A stretch of DNA of 64,000 nucleotides from NCBI GenBank assembly GCA_963748625.1, contig CAVVJT010000007.1, forward strand, positions 288,001 to 352,000, read 5' to 3'. The notes beneath the pieces are model-generated. The model was given only the letters and a program-made list of their open reading frames with translations, searched no databases and had not been told where the DNA came from. Of this stretch, positions 33,898-45,278 are shown piece after piece (position 1 is the first letter of the stretch; each line of letters starts with the position of its first letter). Position numbers and translations under genes: made by a program. This stretch comes from an uncultured Chloroflexia bacterium. Its GTDB lineage: Bacteria; Chloroflexota; Limnocylindria; Limnocylindrales; CSP1-4.

Positions 33898-34647
33898 CTA
33901 CATCATCACCAGGCCGCCGTCCACCGCGAGCACCTGGCCCGTGATGTACGCCGCCTCGTCAGAGGCGAGGAACGCGACCGCGTTGGCGATCTCCTCGGTC
34001 GTGCCGAAGCGGCCCAGCGGCGTGCGCTCGGTGATCTGCGCCATGAGGGCCTCGGGCAGATCCTGTGTGAGCTCGGTGAGGACGAACCCCGGGGCAACGG
34101 CATTCACCGTGATGCCGCGCGACGCGAGTTCCCTGGCGGCGGCCTTCGTGAGGCCGATCAGGCCGGCCTTGGCGGACGAGTAGTTGGCCTGGCCCATCTG
34201 GCCGGCCTGCCCCGAGACGGACGTGATGTTGATGATCCGTCCGCTGCGGGCCTTGAGCATGGGGCGGGTCACGGCCTTGAGCGCCCAGAACGCACCGGAG
34301 AGGTTCGTCTCCAGCACGTCGATCCACTCGTCGGCGCCCATCCGCATGATGAGGTTGTCGCGCGTGATGCCGGCGTTGTTGACCAGGATGTCGATCTTGC
34401 CGAAGGCCTCCAGCACGGCCTTGACGAGCGCCTCGGCGCCCGCCTGCTCCCGGGCATCGGCCTGGACGGCCAGCGCCTTGCGGCCCAGGGCCTCGACGGC
34501 CGCGACCACCTCGCCGGCCGCGGCGGCATTGCCCTTGTAGCTGAACGCCACATCGGCGCCCTGCGTGGCGAGGCGCAGGACGATCGCCCGGCCGATGCCC
34601 CGCGAGCCTCCGGTGACGAGTGCGGTCTTGCCGGTCAGGTCGATCAT
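33898..34647 (-). CDS. fabG: 3-oxoacyl-ACP reductase
   Basis: TGGSRGIG, NNAGITRD, GQANYSSAKAG, NAVAPGF; fab context. Confidence 0.96.
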   Translation of the reverse strand: MIDLTGKTALVTGGSRGIGRAIVLRLATQGADVAFSYKGNAAAAGEVVAAVEALGRKALAVQADAREQAGAEALVKAVLEAFGKIDILVNNAGITRDNLIMRMGADEWIDVLETNLSGAFWALKAVTRPMLKARSGRIINITSVSGQAGQMGQANYSSAKAGLIGLTKAAARELASRGITVNAVAPGFVLTELTQDLPEALMAQITERTPLGRFGTTEEIANAVAFLASDEAAYITGQVLAVDGGLVMM

Positions 34648-34664
34648 GGGACGGTTCCTCGGGT

Positions 34665-35855
34665 TCAGCGGAGGTGGGCGTGCTCGGGCTCGCCGGGCAC
34701 GACGTCGGAGAGGTCCAGGTGGCCGGGCAGCGGGCGGTCGAGCACCTCGGCGAGGACCGCCGGGATGGGATCCACGGAGTCCCGGTTCAACGGCAGCCTG
34801 ACGTGGACATCCTCGGGGCGGACGGCGTCGTCGGCGTCGCGCCCCCGAGCCGGGTCCGCCGTCCACTCGAGGGCCACGGCCCCCGACGTGAAGCCGGCCC
34901 CGAAGGCGACGAAGACGAGCTTGTCGCCAACCCGCACGCGCCCCTCGTTGACCGCCTCGGCGAGCGCGATCGGCACGGACGCCGCGGACGTGTTGCCGTA
35001 GCGGTGGAGGTTCACGTAGATCTTGTCCATCGAGAGGTCGAGGCCCTTGGCCACCGCCTCGATGATCCGCATGTTCGCCTGGTGCGGGATGATCAGGTCC
35101 ACGTCGTCCTGGGTCCAGCCGGCCTTGCCGACCGCGGCCAGCGCGGTGGAGGCGAGCGTCCGGGTCGCGAACCGGTACGTCTCCTTGCCCTCCATCCGGA
35201 TCTTGTGCTCCTTGCGGTCGATCGTGCCGGAGGACGGCGGGCTCGCGGACCCCCCGGCGGGCAGCCAGATCATGTAGGCGCCCTGGGGATCGGTGGTGAG
35301 CTCGATGCCCACGGTGGATGTCGGCTCGTCGGTGGCCGAGAGGACCACGGCGCCCGCGCCGTCGCCGAAGAGGATGCAGGTGCCCCGGTCCTCGTAGTCG
35401 AGGAAGCGGGTCAGCAGCTCCGCGCCGATGACCAGGACATGGTTCGCCATCCCGGCCTGGAGGTACGCGGTTGCCGTCGAGTAGGCGAAGACGAAGCCCG
35501 AGCAGGCCGCCGACACGTCGAACGCCGGCGCCCGGGTGTTGCCGATCGCCTCCTTGACCAGCGCCGCGGTGGAGGGCATCCAGTAATCCGGCGTCAGCGT
35601 GGCAAGCACGATCAGGTCGATGTCGTCGGGAACGAGGCCGGCCGTGTGGATGGCCCGCAGGCCGGCGACCGCGGCCATGGAGGCCGTGGTCTCGTCCCGT
35701 CCGGCGACCCGCCGCTCGCGGATGCCGGTGCGGGTGACGATCCACTCGTCGGAGGTGTCCACCATCCGCTCGAGGTCCGCGTTCGTGAGCACCTGCGCCG
35801 GGGCGTAGCGGCCCCAGCCCGTGAGCCGGACGGCGCGGGTGGGTGCGCCGGTCAT
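34665..35855 (-). CDS. fabH: Beta-ketoacyl-ACP synthase III with C-terminal extension
   Basis: DTSDEWIVTRTGI, AACSGF, LFGDGAGA, PHQANMRII, GNTSAAS, FGAGFT. Confidence 0.95.
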   Translation of the reverse strand: MTGAPTRAVRLTGWGRYAPAQVLTNADLERMVDTSDEWIVTRTGIRERRVAGRDETTASMAAVAGLRAIHTAGLVPDDIDLIVLATLTPDYWMPSTAALVKEAIGNTRAPAFDVSAACSGFVFAYSTATAYLQAGMANHVLVIGAELLTRFLDYEDRGTCILFGDGAGAVVLSATDEPTSTVGIELTTDPQGAYMIWLPAGGSASPPSSGTIDRKEHKIRMEGKETYRFATRTLASTALAAVGKAGWTQDDVDLIIPHQANMRIIEAVAKGLDLSMDKIYVNLHRYGNTSAASVPIALAEAVNEGRVRVGDKLVFVAFGAGFTSGAVALEWTADPARGRDADDAVRPEDVHVRLPLNRDSVDPIPAVLAEVLDRPLPGHLDLSDVVPGEPEHAHLR

Positions 35856-36427
35856 GCGGGCTCCACCTCGATCAGCGGGCTCTTCGCCTTGACCAGGGCG
35901 CCGTTCTCGGCACAGATCCGCACGACGCGCCCGGCAAGGTCGCTCTTGATCTCGTTGAACAGCTTCATGGCCTCGATCAGCCCGATGATCTGGCCGACCG
36001 ACACGTGGTCGCCCACCTTGACGTACGCCGTGGCTCCGGGGGAGGGGGCGCCGTAGTAGATGCCGGTGAGCGGCGCCTTGACGGAGGGCTTCACGGCCGC
36101 CGGTGCAGCGCTGGCTGCAGCAGCCGCGTGCGCCGCCGTCGAGGGGGCGTGCATGAGGGCTGTGGCGGCCTCGTGCGGGCCTGCCTCCGCGGCGGCGACC
36201 GCCGCGACGACGGGCCGCTCCAGCGATGCGGCGGAGCGCAGGATCACGGTCGTCCCGCCCGCGGTGACCTCCAGCTCGCCGAGGTCGCTCTTCTCGAGCA
36301 CGGCGGCGAGCCGGTCCACGAGGGCCAGGAGCGACGCGTCGCCACCGGCCGCGGCGCTCGCAGCCTGGCTGACCTCGCGCTGGCCGTCCTCGGCGGGCTC
36401 CTCGCGCGGTTCCTGCTGCTCGCTCAT
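35852..36427 (-). CDS. accB: Biotin carboxyl carrier protein (biotinylatable)
   Basis: APLTGIYYGAPSPGATAYV thumb loop and IEAMKLFNEI biotinylation motif. Confidence 0.95.
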   Translation of the reverse strand: MSEQQEPREEPAEDGQREVSQAASAAAGGDASLLALVDRLAAVLEKSDLGELEVTAGGTTVILRSAASLERPVVAAVAAAEAGPHEAATALMHAPSTAAHAAAAASAAPAAVKPSVKAPLTGIYYGAPSPGATAYVKVGDHVSVGQIIGLIEAMKLFNEIKSDLAGRVVRICAENGALVKAKSPLIEVEPA

Positions 36428-37695
36428 GCGTCCCACCTCCGGAAGACCAGGGCGGTGTTCTGGCCGCCGAACCCGAACGAGTTGGACATCGCGACGGGGA
36501 TGTCGCGACGGGCGGCCGAGCCGGGCGTCAGGTCGAGGCCCTCGGCGTAGTCGTCGGGATTCTCCAGGTTGAGCGTGGGCGGCACCACGCCGTCGCGCAT
36601 CGCCAGGATGGTGACGATCGCCTCCACCGCACCCGCGGCACCCAGCGTGTGCCCCAGCGCGGACTTGGTGGCGGTGACCGCGACGGCACCGGCGTGCTCG
36701 CCGAAGATGGTCCGGATCGCCTGCAGCTCCGCCTTGTCGCCCTCGGGTGTGGAGGTGGCGTGGGCGTTCACGTGCAGGACCTCGGACGGGTCGATCCCCG
36801 CCTTCGCCAGGGCCTTGCGTGCCGCGCGCACCGCGCCGATCCCGCCCGGGGCCGGCAGCGTGATGTGGGAGGCGTCGGCGGTGGCCCCGTAGCCCACCAG
36901 CTCGGCGAGCGGGGTCGCCCCACGGGCCTCGGCATGCTCGAGCGCCTCGAGCACCACGACCCCGCAGCCCTCGCCCAGCACGAAGCCGTCGCGGCCCTTG
37001 TCGAACGGGCGCGAGGCGCGCTCGGGGGCGTCGTTGCGGGTGGAGAGCGCCTTCATCGACGAGAAGCCGCCGACCGTCGCCTCGTGGACGCCGGCCTCGA
37101 CCCCACCTGCGAGCATCACGTCCGCGTCGCCGCGGCGGATGGTCTCCCAGGCCTCGCCCAGCGCGTGGCCCCCCGTCGCACAGGCCGAGACCGTGGCGAA
37201 GTTCGGACCGATGGCCCCGGTCGCGATCGCGATCTGCCCGGCGCCGACGTTGGAGATGCCCATCGGGATGAAGAAGGGGCTGATCCGGTCCGGGCCCTGC
37301 TCGCCCATCTTGAGCACGTTGTCGAACAGCGTGTGGACGCCCCCCAGGCCGGAGCCAAGGATCACGCCCGTGCGCTCGGCCAGCTCGTCCTCAAGCCGCT
37401 CCGGAAGGCCAGCCTGGTCCATCGCCTGGCGCGCGCACACGAGGCCGAACTGGATGTAGCGATCCGTCCGGCGCATCTCCTTGCGATCGAGGACGGCCGA
37501 CGGGTCGAAGTCTTTCACCTCGCCGGCGATCTTCGAGTCCACCCGGGCAGGGTCGAACTGCGCGATCACGGCGACGCCGGAGCGGCCCGCGACGAGCGCC
37601 TCCCACGTTGTGGCGACGTCGTTGCCCAAGGCCGACACCATGCCCATGCCCGTGACGACGACACGCCGCGGCTGCAGCGGCCAGGACCAGCTCAT
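36424..37695 (-). CDS. fabF: Beta-ketoacyl-ACP synthase II
   Basis: RRVVVTGMG, SACATG, SRPFDKGRDGFV, NAHATST, KSALGHTLGAAG, SNSFGFGG. Confidence 0.96.
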   Translation of the reverse strand: MSWSWPLQPRRVVVTGMGMVSALGNDVATTWEALVAGRSGVAVIAQFDPARVDSKIAGEVKDFDPSAVLDRKEMRRTDRYIQFGLVCARQAMDQAGLPERLEDELAERTGVILGSGLGGVHTLFDNVLKMGEQGPDRISPFFIPMGISNVGAGQIAIATGAIGPNFATVSACATGGHALGEAWETIRRGDADVMLAGGVEAGVHEATVGGFSSMKALSTRNDAPERASRPFDKGRDGFVLGEGCGVVVLEALEHAEARGATPLAELVGYGATADASHITLPAPGGIGAVRAARKALAKAGIDPSEVLHVNAHATSTPEGDKAELQAIRTIFGEHAGAVAVTATKSALGHTLGAAGAVEAIVTILAMRDGVVPPTLNLENPDDYAEGLDLTPGSAARRDIPVAMSNSFGFGGQNTALVFRRWDA

Positions 37696-38438
37696 CGGAC
37701 CAGCTTCCCCGTGCGGACGGTGGCGGCGCGGTAGACATCGCCAGGCAGGCCCCGCGCCGAGATCGCATTGGCGACCGGGAGCACGTCGTAGGGCGTGCGC
37801 TTGATCTCCGCGGTCACGTTGCCCTCGTGGATGTCCACCATCGCCCAGGATGCGGTCGGGTCCCCGTCGAACACGTAGCCCGCCGACCCGGCGTTGACGA
37901 TGACCTTCCAGCCGAGGTCGCGGACCTCGGGCACGTGCGTGTGGCCCACACAGATCACGCGGGCGTCGGTGCCGGCGGCCCGTTCGAAGATGATGTTGGC
38001 GTCGAGCGCCTGGTCGAAACCGCGGGTCTGGGACCCGGGCGATCCGTGGACCACGAGGACCAGGGTGTCGTCCACGGTGCGCATCCGGCGCTCGGCCGGG
38101 AGGCGGCGGAGCCAGTCCAACTGGGCATCGCCCAGCTCGTCGTGCGCCCATTCGGCAGCCGCCGTGACGATCTCGGGGACCCCGTCCTGGTACTGCGGGA
38201 ACGCGGCGCCGTAGTCGAAGTCACCCACGGCGATATCCGTGTTGCCCGACACGATCAGCGCACCTTCGGACTCGAGGAAGCGCAGGGCGTCCACGCAGCC
38301 GTTGGGATCGGGCCCGTTGAGGACAAGGTCCCCCGCCACCAGCACGCCGTCGGGCTTGATGCGCCGGATCTCGGCGGCAACCGCCTCGAGGGCGGCCAGG
38401 TTGCCGTGGATGTCGGAGAGGACGGCGATGCGGGTCAC
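37692..38438 (-). CDS. Calcineurin-like metallophosphoesterase
   Basis: SDIHGN, AGDLV, SGNTD, VHGSP, GHTHVP, NAGSAG. Confidence 0.92.
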   Translation of the reverse strand: MTRIAVLSDIHGNLAALEAVAAEIRRIKPDGVLVAGDLVLNGPDPNGCVDALRFLESEGALIVSGNTDIAVGDFDYGAAFPQYQDGVPEIVTAAAEWAHDELGDAQLDWLRRLPAERRMRTVDDTLVLVVHGSPGSQTRGFDQALDANIIFERAAGTDARVICVGHTHVPEVRDLGWKVIVNAGSAGYVFDGDPTASWAMVDIHEGNVTAEIKRTPYDVLPVANAISARGLPGDVYRAATVRTGKLVR

Positions 38439-38556
38439 TGGGCCACCTCCCGGGCCTGCCAGGACGGTGCAGCGCAAGGCGGAGCCGAGCACCGGAGCGA
38501 GCGCACCCGCAGGTGCGTGAGCGAGGAAGCGGAGGCGACAACGCCGCGATGTGCCG

Positions 38557-39072
38557 TCATCGCAGGACCCCGGCCGGAGGGATGATGAAGGAGAGGAGGC
38601 CCTCGCAGGCCACTTCCCCATCGACCGTCGCGACGCCGCGGCCCTTGCCGAAGCGGCTGCCGAGCTTCTCCATCGTGATCTCGAGGCGGAGCACATCGCC
38701 CGGCACGACGACCCGCTTGAACCGGACGTCGTCGATGCCGGCGAACAGCCCGATCCTGTCGCCGAAGCCCGGCTGGTTCGCGACGTAGCAGGCCATGACC
38801 TGGGCGAGCGCCTCCACCTGGAGGACGCCCGGCATCACCGGCAGGCCCGGGAAGTGGCCCCCGAAGAACCACTCGGTCGCGGTGACGGCCTTGATGCCGA
38901 CGATGCGCTTGGCTGCCGGCTCGTACTCCACGACGCGGTCAACGAGCAGGAACGGCCAGCGGTGCGGAATGAGGCTCTCGATCTGGCGGACCGAGAACGG
39001 CGCGGCCATCGAGGGCGCGGCTGCGTCGGGCGGCGAAGCGTTGGGCGAGGCGTCAGGCGTGGCGTCGGTCAC
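38557..39072 (-). CDS. fabZ: 3-hydroxyacyl-ACP dehydratase (start 39072 or 39084)
   Basis: IPHRWPFLLVDRV, FFGGHFPGLPVMPGVLQVEALAQ, FKRVVVPGD. Confidence 0.96.
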   Translation of the reverse strand: MTDATPDASPNASPPDAAAPSMAAPFSVRQIESLIPHRWPFLLVDRVVEYEPAAKRIVGIKAVTATEWFFGGHFPGLPVMPGVLQVEALAQVMACYVANQPGFGDRIGLFAGIDDVRFKRVVVPGDVLRLEITMEKLGSRFGKGRGVATVDGEVACEGLLSFIIPPAGVLR

Positions 39073-39176
39073 GAGCGGCTCCAAGGGGTTGTCAGCGGGG
39101 GGAAGCGTGCGGGATCGGGGCGGCCACGGGCATGCGGGTCCGTGCAGGGCTGCACGTGCCGTGGGCGGCCCGGCGG

Positions 39177-39224
39177 ATCACGAGGACCGCTCCGCGGCGC
39201 ATCAAGAGGACCGCTCCGCGGCGG
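39177..39224. repeat. 24-bp tandem duplication spanning the accC stop codon
   Basis: atcacgaggaccgctccgcggcgc followed by atcaagaggaccgctccgcggcgg. Confidence 0.9.
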
Positions 39225-40572
39225 CCAGGAAGGCGGCGCTGCCGATGCGGTCCATGAGATTCGTGGTGAAGCGGCCTTCCAGGAAGGGCTCGGAGACGAG
39301 CAGTGCGCGGTGGATCGCGGTGTTGGTCACCACGCCCTCGATCACCAGCTCGCTCAGGGCGGCCTTGCCGCGGGCGATCGCCGCCTCGCGCGTGGGCGCC
39401 CAGACGATCAGCTTGCCCAGGAGCGAGTCGTAGTAGGGCGGGATCTCGTAGCCGGAGTAGGCGTGCGAATCGAAGCGCACCCCGGGCCCGCCCGGGGCGT
39501 TGAAGCGCTCGATGGTGCCCGCGCCCGGCCGGAAGTCGTGCTCGGGGTCCTCAGCGTTGATCCGGAACTCGATGGCGTGGCCATCCTGGCGGACGTCGGC
39601 CTGGGTGAAGCCGAGTGGCTCGCCGGCCGCGATCCGGATCTGGGTTGCCACGAGGTCGATGCCGGTCAGCATCTCGGTGACCGGGTGCTCCACCTGGATG
39701 CGGCAGTTGATCTCGATGAAGTAGGCGTTCCCGTCGTTGTCAACGAGGAACTCCAGCGTGCCCACGTTCTCGTAGCCCGCGGCGACCACCGCCTTGATGG
39801 CGCGGTCGGCGAGCGCCGCGCGCCCGGCCGGGGTCATCGCGGGGGATGGGGACTCCTCGAGGATCTTCTGGTGGCGGCGCTGGATGGAGCAGTCGCGCTC
39901 CCAGAGGTGCACGCCGTTCCCGTGCTGGTCCACGGCCACCTGGATCTCGACGTGGCGGTTGTCCTCCAGCCACTTCTCGAGGTACAGGGCGTCGTCGCCG
40001 AAGGCCGCCTTGGCCTCCGACCGGCAGATCGGCAGGACCGCGGCCAGCTCGCGCGCGGAGCGGACCATGCGCATGCCCTTGCCACCGCCGCCCGCGGAGG
40101 GCTTGAGCAGGACGGGATAGCCCACGCGCTCCGCGGCCTCGAGGGCGTCGGCCTCGTCGGCCAGGAGTCCAGAGCCGGGGACGGTCGGCAGGCCGTGGGC
40201 GGCCAGCAGGCGGCGCACCTCCTCCTTGGAGGCGAACCGCTCGAGGACGCCCGCCGACGGGCCGATGAAGGTGAGGCCATGGGCGCGCACCGCGTCGGCG
40301 AAGGCGTCGTCCTCCGAGAGGAAGCCGTAGCCCGGGTGGATCGCGTCACAGCCGGTGACCAGGGCGGCCGAGATGACGGCCGGCGCCGAGAGGTACGAGC
40401 GACGCGCGTCCGCGGGCCCGATGCAGATCGCCTCGTCGGCGAGGAGCGCGGCCAGCGAGTGGCGGTCGGCCTCGGAGTAGGCCACGACGGCCTCGATGCC
40501 CAGCGTGCGGCAGGCGCGCAGGATGCGCAGCGCGATCTCGCCCCGGTTGGCGATGAGGACGCGGCTGATCAC
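39202..40572 (-). CDS. accC: Acetyl-CoA carboxylase biotin carboxylase subunit
   Basis: VLIANRGEIA, HPGYGFLSE, GGGGKGMR, ERDCSIQRRHQK, RIQVEHPVTE, YYDSLLGKL. Confidence 0.97.
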   Translation of the reverse strand: MISRVLIANRGEIALRILRACRTLGIEAVVAYSEADRHSLAALLADEAICIGPADARRSYLSAPAVISAALVTGCDAIHPGYGFLSEDDAFADAVRAHGLTFIGPSAGVLERFASKEEVRRLLAAHGLPTVPGSGLLADEADALEAAERVGYPVLLKPSAGGGGKGMRMVRSARELAAVLPICRSEAKAAFGDDALYLEKWLEDNRHVEIQVAVDQHGNGVHLWERDCSIQRRHQKILEESPSPAMTPAGRAALADRAIKAVVAAGYENVGTLEFLVDNDGNAYFIEINCRIQVEHPVTEMLTGIDLVATQIRIAAGEPLGFTQADVRQDGHAIEFRINAEDPEHDFRPGAGTIERFNAPGGPGVRFDSHAYSGYEIPPYYDSLLGKLIVWAPTREAAIARGKAALSELVIEGVVTNTAIHRALLVSEPFLEGRFTTNLMDRIGSAAFLAAAERSS

Positions 40573-41123
40573 GAGCCGCCCTCCTCGCTGCCGTCATCGT
40601 CGGGATCGTGGAGCTCCACGGGTGCCTCGACGGCGGCGATCTCCTCGCCGTACTCGACCGCCTCGCCGGTCTGGACGAAGACCTCCACGACGGTGCCGTC
40701 GATGGGTGCCACGACGTCCTGCGGGATCCCGAGGAGGTCCACCGTGGCGATCCGGTCGCCAGTGCGGACGCGGGCACCCACCTGCGCGATCGCCTTGAAC
40801 ACCCCGACGGTGGGGGCGGTGGCGACGCCGCGCTTGCGATCGCTCGCGGGGGTGGTGGCGGCATGCGGCACGGTCGGGCGTTCGGCCGCGACCGGCGCGT
40901 TGGGCCGGGCGCGCTCGCTCCGCCTGGCAGCCGGCGTCGCGTGGGGGGTGCGGCGGAGCCGGATCCTCCAGTCGCCCTCGTGGATCTCCAGCTCGCCCAG
41001 GCCGGACGTCGAGAGCTTGGCGACAAGGGCCGGCACGAGGGTGTCGGAGAGATGGGCGAGCGAGGCATGGTCGGCCTGCCGGTCTGCGGCGGTCCGGTCG
41101 CTCAGGTGGCGCGGTTCGGGCAT
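40569..41123 (-). CDS. BCCP-like biotinyl-domain protein lacking the biotinylated lysine (BADC-like)
   Basis: BCCP N-terminus (SGLGELEIHEGDWRIRLRR), Ala/Pro linker, APTVGVF...VGARVRTGDRIATV-DLLGI-PQDVVAPIDGTV...GEAVEYGEEI; EAMK motif and thumb loop absent. Confidence 0.85.
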   Translation of the reverse strand: MPEPRHLSDRTAADRQADHASLAHLSDTLVPALVAKLSTSGLGELEIHEGDWRIRLRRTPHATPAARRSERARPNAPVAAERPTVPHAATTPASDRKRGVATAPTVGVFKAIAQVGARVRTGDRIATVDLLGIPQDVVAPIDGTVVEVFVQTGEAVEYGEEIAAVEAPVELHDPDDDGSEEGGS

Positions 41124-41126
41124 CGG

Positions 41127-42167
41127 CTAGGCGTCCTCGGGGTCTTGGTCGTCGGTCCTGCGGCCCACCTGGAGCGGGGCCGGCAGGCTGCGCGCACCGG
41201 CCTCGAACAGGCCGCGGATGCGGTCGGTGAAGCTTGGCCGCGACGGGATGGTCGGGGTGGTGGGAGGCACCGGCACGGCGATCTCGTCGTACGGCCCAAG
41301 GGCCCGGTAGCGGCGGTACCGCATCTCGAGCAGCTCGTCCACGGGGATCGCACCCAGCCGGTCGAGCTCACGCACGATGGCAGCCTTGAGGCGGCGGGCA
41401 GTCTCGGGGACGTCGGTGTGGGCGCCGTCGGGCGGCTCGGCGATGACCTCGTCCACGACGCCAAGCGCCTGCTGGTCGCCGGCACTCATGCGCATTGCGA
41501 GCGCGGCGGTCGCGGCCTCATCGGTGGTCCGCCACAGGATGCTCGCGCAGCCCTCCGGGGAGATGACCGAGTAGACGGCGTTCTCGAGCGCGAGCACCAC
41601 GTCGCCCACGGCGATCGCGAGCGCGCCGCCCGAGCCGCCCTCGCCGGTGATCACGGTCACGATCGGCGTGCGCAGGCGGGTCATGAGGCCCACGGAACGG
41701 GCGATGGCCTCGGCGATGCCGCGCTCCTCGGACTCGGGGCCGGGATGGGCGCCGGGCACGTCCACGAACGTGACGACCGGGAGGCCGGAGCGCTCGGCGA
41801 GCTCCATGATCCGCATCGCCTTGCGGTATCCCTCCGGATGGGGCATGCCGAAGCTGCGCCGGACGTTCTCCTCGGTGTCGGCGCCCTTCTGCTGGCCGAT
41901 GACGGCCACCCGGTGGCCGCCGATGCGGGCGAACCCGGCGACGATGGCCTCGTCATCACCAAAGACGCGATCGCCGTGGAGCTCCACGAACTCGTCGGCC
42001 ATGACGGCGAGGAGCTCGAGGATCCGCGGCCGGCGCAGGTTCCGTGCGAGCTGGACCCGGCTCCAGACCTCGGCCTTGCGGTCGGCGGGCTCGGCTTCGG
42101 GGCTGGGCGCGTCGGTCGTGTCGGGCGCGGCGGTGGCGTCGCGGCCCCGCAGGAGGCGGTCAACCAC
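41127..42167 (-). CDS. accA: Acetyl-CoA carboxylase carboxyltransferase alpha
   Basis: VQLARNLRRP, ELHGDRVFGDD, FGMPHPEGYRKA, GEGGSGGALA, YSVISPEGCASILW; GGAGG before GTG 42167. Confidence 0.96.
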   Translation of the reverse strand: MVDRLLRGRDATAAPDTTDAPSPEAEPADRKAEVWSRVQLARNLRRPRILELLAVMADEFVELHGDRVFGDDEAIVAGFARIGGHRVAVIGQQKGADTEENVRRSFGMPHPEGYRKAMRIMELAERSGLPVVTFVDVPGAHPGPESEERGIAEAIARSVGLMTRLRTPIVTVITGEGGSGGALAIAVGDVVLALENAVYSVISPEGCASILWRTTDEAATAALAMRMSAGDQQALGVVDEVIAEPPDGAHTDVPETARRLKAAIVRELDRLGAIPVDELLEMRYRRYRALGPYDEIAVPVPPTTPTIPSRPSFTDRIRGLFEAGARSLPAPLQVGRRTDDQDPEDA

Positions 42168-43011
42168 GGGTGGCCTCCACGGGCTGGGGCGCGAGGAAGC
42201 GCAGGATCTGGGCGAGCTCCGGGCGCAGGTCGGCGCGAGTGACGACGCGATCCACGAAGCCATGGCGGTAGAGGAACTCGGAGCGCTGGAACCCGGGTGG
42301 CAGCTCCTGGCCGATGGTGCCCGCGCCCACCCGCGCGCCCGCGAAGCCGATCAGGGCGTTGGGCTCCGCAAGGTTGATGTCGCCCATGGCGGCGTACGAG
42401 GCGAACACGCCACCCGTGGTGGGGTCGGACATGATCGAGACGTAGGGCACCTTGCCGGCGCGCAGGCGCTCCAGGGCCGCCATGGTCTTCGCGAGCTGCA
42501 TCAGCGCCAGCGTCCCCTCCTGCATCCGCGCCCCGCCCGACGCGGAGACGATGACCAGCGGCACCCGTTCGGCAAGGGCGCCCTCGGCGGATCGGGCGAC
42601 CTTCTCGCCCACGACGGCGCCCATCGAGCCGCCCATGAACCCGAAGTCCATCACCAGGATGGCGATCCGCTGGCCCTCGATGCGGCCGAAGCCCCAGACG
42701 GCGGCGTCGCGCAGGCCCGTGGCGACCTGGGCGGCCGCGACGCGATCGGGGTACGGCTTCTGGTCCACGAACCCGAGCGGGTCCACGGACACCAGCCCCG
42801 GGTCACGCTCCTCGAAGGTCCCCTCGTCGAGGAGCTGGCCGAGGCGGGCGGTCGCCGGGAGGCGGAAGTGGTGCCCGCAGGACGGGCACACGTGCATCGC
42901 CTTCTCGAGCGCCTTGTTGAACAGCTGCTCCTGGCACGAGGGACAGCGGGTCCACATCTTCTCGGGGAAGCTGTCCCGGCGGGACCGGAACTGCGGGAAG
43001 TTGACGGGCAT
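42160..43011 (-). CDS. accD: Acetyl-CoA carboxylase carboxyltransferase beta
   Basis: WTRCPSC...VCPSCGHH Zn finger, FMGGSMG, SGGARMQEG, PTTGGVFAS, GFQRSEFL. Confidence 0.97.
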   Translation of the reverse strand: MPVNFPQFRSRRDSFPEKMWTRCPSCQEQLFNKALEKAMHVCPSCGHHFRLPATARLGQLLDEGTFEERDPGLVSVDPLGFVDQKPYPDRVAAAQVATGLRDAAVWGFGRIEGQRIAILVMDFGFMGGSMGAVVGEKVARSAEGALAERVPLVIVSASGGARMQEGTLALMQLAKTMAALERLRAGKVPYVSIMSDPTTGGVFASYAAMGDINLAEPNALIGFAGARVGAGTIGQELPPGFQRSEFLYRHGFVDRVVTRADLRPELAQILRFLAPQPVEATRG

Positions 43012-43622
43012 CAGGCAGGGCCTCCAAGGCCGGCTCCGGCGAGCGCCGCGTGGGCGGCCCGGCGGGCATGGGCGGTGCGGGCGGCGCGGCGCATGAGCGC
43101 CTCCGCGGTGCGGGCGTCGCCGTGGGCCGCGCGCCAGGCGACCCAGGCCACACCCACGATGGAGATGGCGGCAGAGGTGATCGCCGCGCCACCCACGACG
43201 TAAAGCGGGGTGCGGCTGGCGGTATCCCCGGCGGCGCGGGCGACGGCGTCCGCATCCGACGGGTCGAGCTCGCCGGTCAGGACGGCGGCGAGGAGCGGGT
43301 CGTCAAGGCGGCCGGGAGGTACGGCGCCCGGGAACGGGATGAGGGCGCCGCCGCCCACCGCCATGGCAGGAGCTGCCTGCGCGGCGGCCAGCTCGGCAAG
43401 GCGTCCGGCGAGGCGCTCCTCGAAGCGGAACGAGGGGTGGATGCGGACGAGCGAGGCCTGCAGGACGCGAGCGGCATGGCGGAGGCCGGGATCGAGAGCG
43501 GCGTCGGCAGGAACGTCCTCCGCGCGGCGCTCGGCCGCAGCGAGCAGATCCTCGAGGTAGCGATCGGCGACAAGGGCGTCGACCTGGTCTCCATCGCGGT
43601 CGGGCAGGCGCGGCACGGTCAT
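43011..43622 (-). CDS. Hypothetical single-TM protein, putative anti-sigma factor
   Basis: Coupled (ATGA overlap) to the upstream ECF sigma; N-terminal helical region with HPSFRFEERL and one C-terminal TM helix. Confidence 0.6.
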   Translation of the reverse strand: MTVPRLPDRDGDQVDALVADRYLEDLLAAAERRAEDVPADAALDPGLRHAARVLQASLVRIHPSFRFEERLAGRLAELAAAQAAPAMAVGGGALIPFPGAVPPGRLDDPLLAAVLTGELDPSDADAVARAAGDTASRTPLYVVGGAAITSAAISIVGVAWVAWRAAHGDARTAEALMRRAARTAHARRAAHAALAGAGLGGPA

Positions 43623-44329
43623 GCGCGGCTGCCCCGGTCCCGACCGGGCTGGGTGCCCCCGTCACGACGAAGCCCGGTGCCCCGGTCCCGGCTGAGCGCG
43701 GTGCCCCGGTCCCGCCCGAGCTCCTTGGCGACGGCCCCGAGCGCCCGGTGGATCAGGACGCGGACGGCGCCCTCGGACCTGCCCAGGACGCCGGCGATCT
43801 CCGCGGTGCTCATCTCCTCCACGAACCGCAGTTCCAGGGCGCGGCGCCGGTCGTCGGGCAGGGAGCGCAGCGCCCGCAGGGCCTCGGTGGCCTCGTCGCG
43901 GGTCACCGCGTCATGCTCCAGGTCCGTGGTGTCCGCGAGGGCGAGCCCCGCGCCGAGCGCGAGGTCCAGCGAGTCGGCGGGCTTGCGGTTGCGGGTCCGG
44001 CGCTCGTTGGCAATCACGTTGCGCGCGATCCGGAACAGCCACACGCGGAACGTGGAGGCCTCGGGGCCGTCCTCGGCGCGGGCCTGCTCCCGGAAACGCG
44101 GCAGCGCCGCCAGCGCCCGCAGGAAGGTCCGCTCGGTGGCGTCCTCCGCGGCGTGGTGGTCGGCGAGCTCGTAGAGCGCGAACGCATACACCTGGGCGAG
44201 GTACTTCCGGTACAGGGCGTCGAACTGGGCGGGGTCCCGGCGTGCCGCCTCCACGAGGCGCCGGTCGCGATCGAGCGCGACGACGCCCTCGCCGGCGCGC
44301 TCCTGCCTACCAAACACCGGGCGGACCAT
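43619..44329 (-). CDS. ECF-type RNA polymerase sigma-70 factor
   Basis: FDALYRKY, AEDATERTFLRA, FRVWLFRIARN (region 2); LELRFVEEMSTAEIAGVLGRSEGAVRVLIHRA (region 4); C-terminal 8-aa repeats. Confidence 0.93.
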   Translation of the reverse strand: MVRPVFGRQERAGEGVVALDRDRRLVEAARRDPAQFDALYRKYLAQVYAFALYELADHHAAEDATERTFLRALAALPRFREQARAEDGPEASTFRVWLFRIARNVIANERRTRNRKPADSLDLALGAGLALADTTDLEHDAVTRDEATEALRALRSLPDDRRRALELRFVEEMSTAEIAGVLGRSEGAVRVLIHRALGAVAKELGRDRGTALSRDRGTGLRRDGGTQPGRDRGSRA

Positions 44330-44333
44330 CGCG

Positions 44334-45278
44334 TTACACCCCGTCCCGCTGGGCGGGCGTGTCCTGGTCGGCGGCGGCGTCCCCGCGGTCGGAGTCGGGC
44401 GGCGCGGCCAGGCGCACACGGACGACCTCGCCGGCGTGAACGTGGCGCTCCCCGCCCGGCACCTCGTCGTCGGCCAGGACCAGCGCGCCGCTGGAGCCGT
44501 CCACACCGAGAGCCGGCAGCGGCTCGGTGGCCGACCCGTCGGGTGCCTCGAGGGTCACCAGGCGTCCGGTGGTGACCTGGCGCCGCGTCCAGGTGTCCAC
44601 GTCGAACCAGCCGGCACGCAGGGCCTCGTGCCGGCCGGCCAGCCGGTCGGCGAACGCGTCGAACAGGGCGTCCCGATCGATCGGACGGCCGCCGGACGCC
44701 TCGCGCAGGCTCGTCATGGTGTGGGCGATGTCGGGCGGGAAGGCGTCCTGCGTCCAGTCGGTGTTGATCCCGATGCCCACCACCACCCGCGGGTTGTCGG
44801 TGCCCAGGCCATCGCTCTCGCCGAGGACCCCCGCGAGCTTCTGCAGCCGCAGCGGCGCGGCCAGGCGCTCGGAGGCCTCGTCGGCGGACAGGAGGCCCGT
44901 CAGCAGTGCGTTCGGCCCAGCGGTCTCGATCACGAGGTCGTTCGGCCACTTCAGGCGGATGGCGCCCTCGGGGAGTCCTGCGGTGTCCTCGGCGGCATCG
45001 CACATGGCGAGGGCCACCGTGGCGGCGACGCGCCAGGCGCGGTCGGGCGGGAGATACGCGGGCCGGAAGCCGAGCGAGCAGAGAAGCGCCGCTCCGGGGG
45101 GCGCCGTCCACGTGCGGCCGTGGCGCCCGCGCCCGGCGGTCTGCTCATCGGCGAGCGCGCAGCACACCTCGGGCGTGGCGTCGAGCAGCCACGTCCGCAC
45201 GATGTCATTGGTGCTGCCGGTGGACGGGTACCGCTCGACCCGGCTGAAGACCGAACCGCCGGCAGGAGCCTCGGTCAC
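44334..45278 (-). CDS. birA: Biotin--protein ligase without N-terminal HTH (class I)
   Basis: STGSTND, ADEQTAGRGRHGRTW, LKWPND, KLAGVLGE, VVGIGIN. Confidence 0.93.
   Translation of the reverse strand: MTEAPAGGSVFSRVERYPSTGSTNDIVRTWLLDATPEVCCALADEQTAGRGRHGRTWTAPPGAALLCSLGFRPAYLPPDRAWRVAATVALAMCDAAEDTAGLPEGAIRLKWPNDLVIETAGPNALLTGLLSADEASERLAAPLRLQKLAGVLGESDGLGTDNPRVVVGIGINTDWTQDAFPPDIAHTMTSLREASGGRPIDRDALFDAFADRLAGRHEALRAGWFDVDTWTRRQVTTGRLVTLEAPDGSATEPLPALGVDGSSGALVLADDEVPGGERHVHAGEVVRVRLAAPPDSDRGDAAADQDTPAQRDGV

Follow-up and report, generated by a model that had tools for sequence, protein, structure and literature searches.

A conserved lysine-less paralogue of the biotin carboxyl carrier protein in the acetyl-CoA carboxylase operon of Limnocylindrales

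We analysed a stretch of 64,000 nucleotides from an uncultured bacterium of the Chloroflexota (positions 288,001 to 352,000 of contig CAVVJT010000007.1, assembly GCA_963748625.1), referred to as a whole as the window, in which an earlier note had singled out a 184-aa gene between the acetyl-CoA carboxylase (ACCase) genes accA and accC. This gene, here called X (40569..41123), was characterised using the open reading frame (ORF) list, Pfam, TIGR00531, BLASTP and alignments as a paralogue of BCCP, the biotin carboxyl carrier protein (encoded by accB), that has no biotinyl lysine. All window features whose coordinates are given below lie on the (-) strand. Coordinates read from the sequence place X as the note had it: its ATG is at 41123, the accA stop codon TAG (41129-41127) ends 3 nt ahead, and the TGA stop codon of X (40571-40569) overlaps the GTG start of accC (40572-40570), forming GTGA. 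A likely ribosome-binding site, GAGGA (41134..41138), was read from the sequence 10 nt before the ATG, within the 3' end of accA.

The product of X has the three-part architecture of a BCCP. Residues 12-57 (40953..41090) form an N-terminal helix (12-40) and a beta-hairpin (44-57), modelled by AlphaFold2 (AF2) with a predicted local distance difference test score (pLDDT) of about 90; they correspond to the alpha/beta/beta motif of BCCP N-termini, GLGELEI included, and align to the N-terminus of E. coli BCCP (4hr7_B). They are followed by an Ala/Pro/Arg-rich linker (residues 58-97, 40833..40952), predicted to be disordered (pLDDT below 50 over 62-78 and 87-92) and of variable length across an alignment of 34 orthologous sequences. 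Residues 98-166 (40626..40832) form a biotinyl-type beta-barrel without a thumb, as judged from the model (pLDDT 95-98), Foldseek and a loop count, and residues 167-184 (40572..40625) form an acidic C-terminal tail that is genus-specific in the homologue alignment. The Pfam profile Biotin_lipoyl (PF00364) matches residues 105-164 with 30.1 bits, above its gathering cut-off of 22.1, and TIGR00531 aligns nearly end to end (positions 8-155 of the BCCP model to residues 32-166 of X).

Three hallmarks of AccB are absent from this otherwise complete architecture, namely the lysine, the thumb and a TIGR00531 score above the curated cut-off (51.3 bits for X, against 115.2). At the first, D129-L-L-G-I133 (codons at 40725..40739) replaces E-A-M-K-L/M, with Gly132 at the position of the biotinyl lysine. 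DLLGI aligns to EAMKL of the AccB encoded in the window (BLASTP, 23% identity, E-value 2e-4), and also to EAMKM of E. coli BCCP in the profile alignment. The thumb, which cradles the biotin, was assessed by counting the residues from the beta2 Gly to the lysine position in a multiple alignment: there are 24 in X and 32 in 22/22 lysine-bearing BCCPs, so that X is 8 residues shorter. The note had described a full BCCP architecture, a replacement of EAMKM by DLLGI in codons 40739-40725 and a missing thumb loop, and each of these descriptions holds as it was made, the first through the TIGR00531 alignment, the AF2 model and the profile match to 4hr7_B. A sequencing error behind the lost lysine, which the note had also discounted, was ruled out because the changes extend over the entire motif and the thumb and are conserved across orthologues.

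The complete AF2 model of X has a mean pLDDT of 82.9 and contains the helix (12-40), the hairpin (44-57), the disordered linker and the barrel (98-166). Its best Foldseek matches are BCCP domains (5gua with an E-value of 3.7e-6 and a TMt of 0.86, then 1bdo and 4hr7_G), and the best match of the X-family profile in the PDB is full-length E. coli BCCP (4hr7_B, E-value 2e-23), N-terminus included. Matches in an atlas include clusters from Armatimonadota (score 0.93).

To measure the conservation of X, we ran a protein search that yielded 660 homologues at an E-value threshold of 1e-3 among 1574 candidates. In all of the best 120 of these 660 (55-100% identity), the lysine position is occupied by Gly, in a surrounding sequence that reads VDLLGI(P/A)QDV or nearly so, and two of the NCBI records among the homologues name Candidatus Limnocylindrales. 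Within the class of the window (Limnocylindrales in public names, with families labelled f1 to f4), X was matched at an E-value of at most 1e-5 in 147 of 151 genomes, 7 of which are unpublished (f1 44/44, f2 6/6, f4 50/50, f3 45/49; the weaker f3 matches may be AccB instead). We then fetched the loci of 49 class genomes, of which 48 hold both accA and accC. A BCCP-like frame follows accA directly on the same strand in all 48, of which 46 were found by tblastn and read and 2 were placed by match coordinates, and the order accD-accA-X-(fabD)-accC is common to all of them. The same order was found in 7/7 metagenome loci (6 distinct). In f1 and f2, the X stop and the accC start, the latter chosen by script, overlap by up to 11 nt or lie up to 3 nt apart (18/18 loci); in f3 and f4, fabD lies between X and accC, with a match to Acyl_transf_1 in 9 of the 12 gap ORFs scanned. 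A fusion of accA and X was rejected: the long frames seen are stop-to-stop frames of GC-rich DNA, and in one locus checked by tblastn the accA and X matches lie in different frames.

The frame is intact and Gly occupies the lysine position in all 46 class orthologues read. Eleven columns are invariant in 34 orthologues with 26-60% identity to X (V106, G107, G116, G122, L131, G132, G143, G153, V156, E157 and G159). The ratio of nonsynonymous to synonymous substitution rates (dN/dS, NG86) was taken from close pairs of class loci because the metagenome relatives of X, at 55-64% identity, are too distant; among 990 pairs, the 10 with at least 72% identity give values of 0.13-0.31. No conserved lysine was found in any alignment column: across 49 lysine-less sequences, lysine reaches a frequency of 29% at most. 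An alternative acceptor lysine was rejected on this count. A pseudogene was likewise rejected, on conservation and dN/dS. The earlier note had asked whether the glycine and the synteny are conserved under a dN/dS below 1, and had named retention of the lysine or decay of the gene in close relatives as outcomes that would speak against it; the former is what we observed, and neither of the latter was found in the class. As far as comparison of these sequences goes, X is under purifying selection, its biotinylation at the canonical site is impossible, and it is a working gene for a BCCP-derived protein unable to carry biotin. Among the sequencing runs listed with this DNA there is no RNA run, and the DNA runs all have small shares.

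In order to assess a possible contact with biotin carboxylase (BC), we modelled the complex of AccC (29-row alignment) and X (34 rows) in three runs with 3 controls. The complex scored 0.81, 0.79 and 0.81, and the best of the 3 controls 0.00. Among solved complexes, 58 of 80 attain the mark used, and among mismatched pairs 2 of 110 do so, counts that hold only roughly here because custom alignments were used. The runs share at least 59% of their contacts, with a partner pLDDT of at least 67. The predicted interface comprises residues 34, 49-53, 59, 64-65, 67-69, 71-73 and 98 of AccC and residues 105-108, 130-131, 133, 155 and 157-160 of X, and contains seven family-conserved residues of X (the invariant V106, G107, L131, E157 and G159, the nearly invariant Y158, and L130). 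In the text available of recent reports, E. coli BCCP binds the BC helix of aa 64-73 in 4HR7 (10.64898/2025.12.30.697075) and is parked at a non-catalytic site of BC (PMC11160672). The predicted docking site of X is helix 64-73 in the N-terminal domain of AccC, which is the BCCP parking site of 4HR7. A complex of X with AccC had been put forward in the note. It could be modelled, and the model lends support to binding; since a like complex (4HR7) is already solved, we take the pass as showing that the docking face is kept and not that the two proteins bind.

The operon around X was read from the ORF list and Pfam matches, in the (-) strand order accD, accA, X, accC, fabZ, metallophosphoesterase, fabF, accB, fabH, fabG. 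The first gene, accD (42160..43011), encodes the carboxyltransferase beta subunit with its zinc ribbon, and accA (41127..42263) the alpha subunit; the true start of accA is probably downstream of 42263 because that ORF overlaps accD. Biotin carboxylase, of 456 aa, is encoded by accC (39202..40572), whose GTG start overlaps the X stop. fabZ (38557..39084) runs in the same direction as the operon, and fabF (within 36424-38151), fabH (34665..35855) and fabG (33898-34650) complete a fatty-acid cluster. A normal accB with EAMKL, which the earlier note had located between fabF and fabH, is indeed there (35852..36436), 4.1 kb downstream of X. From Pfam, TIGR00531 and motif comparison, it encodes a catalytic BCCP that has the thumb and EAMKL and is without the VEYG docking motif described below; its TIGR00531 score of 111.5 bits is just below the cut-off of 115.2.

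Outside the class, the X family leads to another genomic location. A profile search of 301 genomes of the phylum, one of them unpublished, gave 148-191 bits within the class and at most about 100 bits outside it. We fetched 20 of the best-scoring out-of-class matches; EAMK is retained in 5, and the other 15 are lysine-less (G 8, N 4, A 1, Q 1, M 1). Each of the 20 follows efp directly and most precede xseA, in the order aroQ-pepP-efp-[gene]-xseA-xseB-DUF212, and none of the 20 has accA or accC nearby. A second sample of 20 genomes from 17 families, 13 of them new with respect to the first, contained 12 lysine-less genes (N 5, Q 4, R 2, G 1) and 8 lysine-bearing ones, with 17/20 adjoining efp and/or xseA. 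Together, the two samples hold 27/40 lysine-less genes (14 families) and 13/40 lysine-bearing genes (9 families), and 37/40 adjoin efp and/or xseA; the 40 genomes are a non-random set, picked from the top of a ranking by a lysine-less profile. A profile of the out-of-class lysine-less proteins retrieved 6941 proteins at an E-value of at most 1e-10 among 8000 scored candidates, and the best 119 new proteins of these carry G (49), N (69) or K (1) at the position. The single K belongs to a protein of the Asn-type group that reads IESLKVINEV, with lysine back at the old position, and may be a reversion or a sequencing variant.

In the genome of the window, efp and xseA are neighbours, about 40-200 nt apart, and have no BCCP gene between them. 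The same holds for 4 of 5 further class genomes checked, the fifth having no xseA in the fetched flank, which makes 5 of 6 class genomes in all. Because the efp-xseA slot is empty where X sits in the acc operon, each genome appears to hold one gene of this lineage, in either slot. The simplest reading is that X is probably the efp-linked accB which is ancestral in Chloroflexota and was relocated to the acc operon when the class arose, and that lysine was lost in many families of the phylum within the efp-slot lineage, if the sequence comparisons are read correctly. The note's description of X as a paralogue in the accB slot stands as to position; X is, beyond a local paralogue, probably a descendant of the efp-linked accB lineage.

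A separate, second-type BCCP with thumb and EAMK was present in 4/4 out-of-class lysine-less genomes checked and in the class genomes, often near accC or fab genes. Where the efp-slot gene bears lysine, it is the sole free-standing BCCP in 4 of 5 such genomes; the fifth (Thermomicrobium roseum / bacterium HR28) has two more free-standing BCCP paralogues, with hairpins EVMKL and GVMKT, and may represent an intermediate state before lysine loss. For a careful tree, the columns of the hairpin and the thumb were left out. In it, the second-type AccBs are united in a single clade (94/83) that lies within the lysine-bearing efp-slot genes, and lysine-bearing and lysine-less sequences fall, weakly, on two sides of one branch (76/25), with 80% of 200 bootstrap trees needing one change. 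The X genes of f1, f2 and f4 are grouped (99/97) and are weakly sister (67/57) to the efp-slot genes of a family labelled f22, which share with them a near-identical VDVLGV.H[DE]V hairpin; X of f3 lies apart from them. The tree may reflect a single old loss of lysine.

The two kinds of AccB also differ in their docking motifs. xVGx and VEYG(Q/E) are kept in 49/49 lysine-less sequences (one with VEFGE) and in 5/5 lysine-bearing efp-slot AccBs, and are absent from 17/17 second-type lysine-bearing AccBs, which have L-T/S-G and LVK-type sequences instead. The counterparts in E. coli BCCP are MVGT and VEFD. The second-type AccB would accordingly seem to have lost its docking face for AccC.

Several other genes of the window lie near the operon. 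A biotin protein ligase gene (44334-45278; Pfam BPL_LplA_LipB 52.7 bits, GRGRHGRTW motif) is located on the same strand 1.3 kb upstream of accD, and therefore the ligase, ACCase and both BCCP forms are clustered within 10 kb. Upstream of accD lies a gene for an extracytoplasmic function (ECF)-type sigma factor (43619-44506; Sigma70_r2 and r4_2), and after it comes one for a 203-aa protein (43011-43622) that has no Pfam family, is possibly an anti-sigma factor, and has a stop codon abutting the accD start at 43011; together they may provide dedicated control of the acc/fab operon. The gene between fabZ and fabF encodes a calcineurin-like metallophosphoesterase (37692-38696), found in the same place in 3/3 f2 genomes examined. 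Elsewhere, the genome of the window encodes two more biotin-dependent enzymes (contigs C10:241972-244845 and C4:624147-626510), one being a BC with a fused biotinyl domain (VVEAMKM) adjoining carboxyltransferase genes and the other a small EAMKM carrier adjoining carboxyltransferase-like genes.

From these observations, we consider X likely to be a non-catalytic, AccC-binding subunit of ACCase. The earlier note had proposed a non-biotinylated scaffold or inhibitory subunit made together with AccC. The missing acceptor lysine, the purifying selection, the tight packing of the genes and the predicted docking on AccC lend partial support to a subunit of this kind. We lean, with a confidence that falls somewhat short of even, to an anchor or scaffold, because of the tight co-translation and the complementary loss of motifs in AccB. 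Under this proposal, the two jobs of a BCCP would be split between X and AccB: X would be a static anchor and assembly subunit that holds biotin carboxylase at the parking site and co-assembles with AccB through their N-termini, and AccB would be the mobile, swinging biotin arm, resulting in an ACCase with five subunit types, like the plant ACCase with BADC. In the available text of PMC11160672, the N-terminal 30 residues of E. coli BCCP form an alpha/beta/beta motif, and a model makes this motif the hub by which the carriers are held in position. A wider version, which we regard as possible and somewhat speculative, would extend this five-subunit ACCase with split carrier roles to many Chloroflexota families, the efp-linked AccB becoming an anchor and hub nucleator and the second AccB a free arm. 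In it, the ancestral efp-linked AccB would have lost its lysine, and in the class of the window its thumb too, and the second AccB its docking face.

Several points weigh against the anchor proposal. The case is built wholly from sequence comparison and predicted models, and the complex pass may reflect likeness to the solved 4HR7. The loss of docking in AccB is read from motif loss alone. The deep branches of the tree are weak, with the split between lysine and no lysine at 76/25 once the trait columns are left out. Most out-of-class lysine-less genes adjoin efp or xseA, away from acc genes, and operon linkage thus backs a role in ACCase in the class of the window only. The assembly of the window is 98.3% complete and 7.74% contaminated, although we take the acc operon as native, not foreign, because it is syntenic with the operons of relatives. 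Finally, a stoichiometric, co-translated occupant of the BCCP site could equally be a brake.

This last point is the basis of the strongest alternative, in which X would be a competitive brake that fills BCCP positions on BC or in the hub without delivering biotin, lowering the flux through ACCase, with an inhibition that pH, metabolites or PII might relieve. This alternative shares its docking evidence with the anchor, and a lysine-less X is by construction a dead-end occupant. Plant BADC has also been read as an inhibitor, in what could be drawn from PMC13585458 and PMC11926652 (citing Salie 2016, Keereetaweep 2018 and Ye 2020). We nevertheless find a brake unlikely. In all class loci examined, X belongs to the same operon and is closely followed by accC or fabD, which fits a constitutive stoichiometric subunit better, and the catalytic AccB is without the docking motif that X keeps, so that the two may not compete for one site. 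Even for BADC, the portion of PMC11926652 available to us cites in vitro work that favours 'glue' over inhibition.

We hold it more improbable still that X acts outside ACCase catalysis, either as an autoregulator, transcriptional or translational, of acc/fab through its BCCP N-terminus or as a partner of a further enzyme, for instance one of the genome's other carboxylases or something connected with the surroundings of efp and xseA. The location of 37/40 out-of-class genes beside efp and/or xseA, not acc genes, and the two more biotin enzymes of the window genome would suit such a role. These two carboxylases, however, carry lysine-bearing biotinyl domains of their own, and linkage of efp and accB is an old positional feature of bacterial genomes, which we count against this alternative. 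In favour of an autoregulator, the E. coli AccB N-terminus is described as an expression regulator in the text available of PMC11160672. Against it, the most conserved residues of X lie on the face of the C-terminal barrel predicted to meet AccC and not in the N-terminus alone, and neither a Pfam scan nor the AF2 model of X contains a DNA-binding fold. Last, a decaying or functionless accB relic, or a cofactor carrier using another lysine, could be read from the TIGR00531 score having fallen to 51.3 bits, the long branches of lysine-less sequences and the drift at the old lysine position, where the phylum has G, N, Q, R, A or M. We find this very improbable given intact frames in all genes read (46 orthologues of the class, and 27 lysine-less genes from outside it), a dN/dS of 0.13-0.31, eleven invariant columns across 34 sequences at 26-60% identity, the lack of any lysine column above 29% among the 49 lysine-less sequences and a confidently modelled barrel.

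We then compared X, as an anchor subunit, with known systems. It shares with E. coli AccB the three-part architecture, an MVGTF-type strand and a PVEF/PVEY motif, and it is predicted at the same helix of AccC that E. coli BCCP occupies on BC in 4HR7 (64-73); unlike E. coli AccB, it has no lysine, a thumb 8 residues shorter and a score below the TIGR00531 cut-off, and would not shuttle carboxybiotin. The epsilon subunits of actinobacterial acyl-CoA carboxylases (AccE/PccE) resemble X as proposed in being small non-catalytic proteins of bacterial biotin carboxylase complexes; they are not known to be related to X in sequence or fold and are not BCCP-derived. In the portion of PMC11926652 at hand (citing Gago 2006 and 2011), they help to assemble and activate the complex and are called 'glue'.

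The closest likeness is to the BADC (biotin attachment domain-containing) proteins (BADC1-3 of Arabidopsis and Cre01.g037850 of Chlamydomonas), which to our knowledge are confined to plants and algae. Like X, they are BCCP-derived, have no biotinyl lysine and occur alongside a functional BCCP in heteromeric ACCase. Judging from the text available of the sources, BADC is reported to bind both BC and BCCP, and it has been taken for an inhibitor or for assembly 'glue' (PMC11926652, PMC13585458, 10.64898/2025.12.30.697075). The contact with BC is thus reported for BADC and predicted for X, and X differs further in being bacterial and encoded inside the acc operon. BADC is also described, in the part of 10.64898/2025.12.30.697075 available, as without the whole biotinylated loop, whereas X keeps the hairpin with a Gly. 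As far as sequence can tell, X may work like BADC. We infer that it arose independently and that the likeness is convergent, because the trees, in which no BADC sequence was included, place X among the efp-slot BCCPs of Chloroflexota.

A full-text literature search found no paper describing a bacterial lysine-less BCCP; supplements lie outside such a search and may hold a mention. In the text available to us, a paper on the ACCase of C. aurantiacus reports only lysine-bearing BCCPs (PMC11077971). The X family is real, conserved and not described in the literature searched. In records of NCBI and JGI, the name 'acetyl-CoA carboxylase biotin carboxyl carrier protein' is given to lysine-less proteins, among them those of the cultured Thermogemmatispora and Dictyobacter. 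This is a systematic annotation error, by which metabolic reconstructions may count a dead carrier as AccB; automatic annotation could even miss the true AccB (111.5 bits, no VEYG-type motif) and yet label the lysine-less gene as AccB.

Acetyl-CoA carboxylase catalyses the committed step of fatty-acid synthesis, which is also the most regulated one, and the bacterial enzyme is a drug target and a model for the plastid enzyme. Whether BADC acts as a brake or as glue is a matter of dispute. A large family of such proteins in bacteria would be of use here, and its members in cultured organisms, together with its location in the acc operon in the class, offer a simple test system for such a subunit. 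The family would show that a BADC-like solution evolved more than once. If the division of carrier roles between X and AccB is true, bacteria would have arrived on their own at the solution that plants have in BADC, and this would favour the 'glue' over the inhibitor view of BADC.

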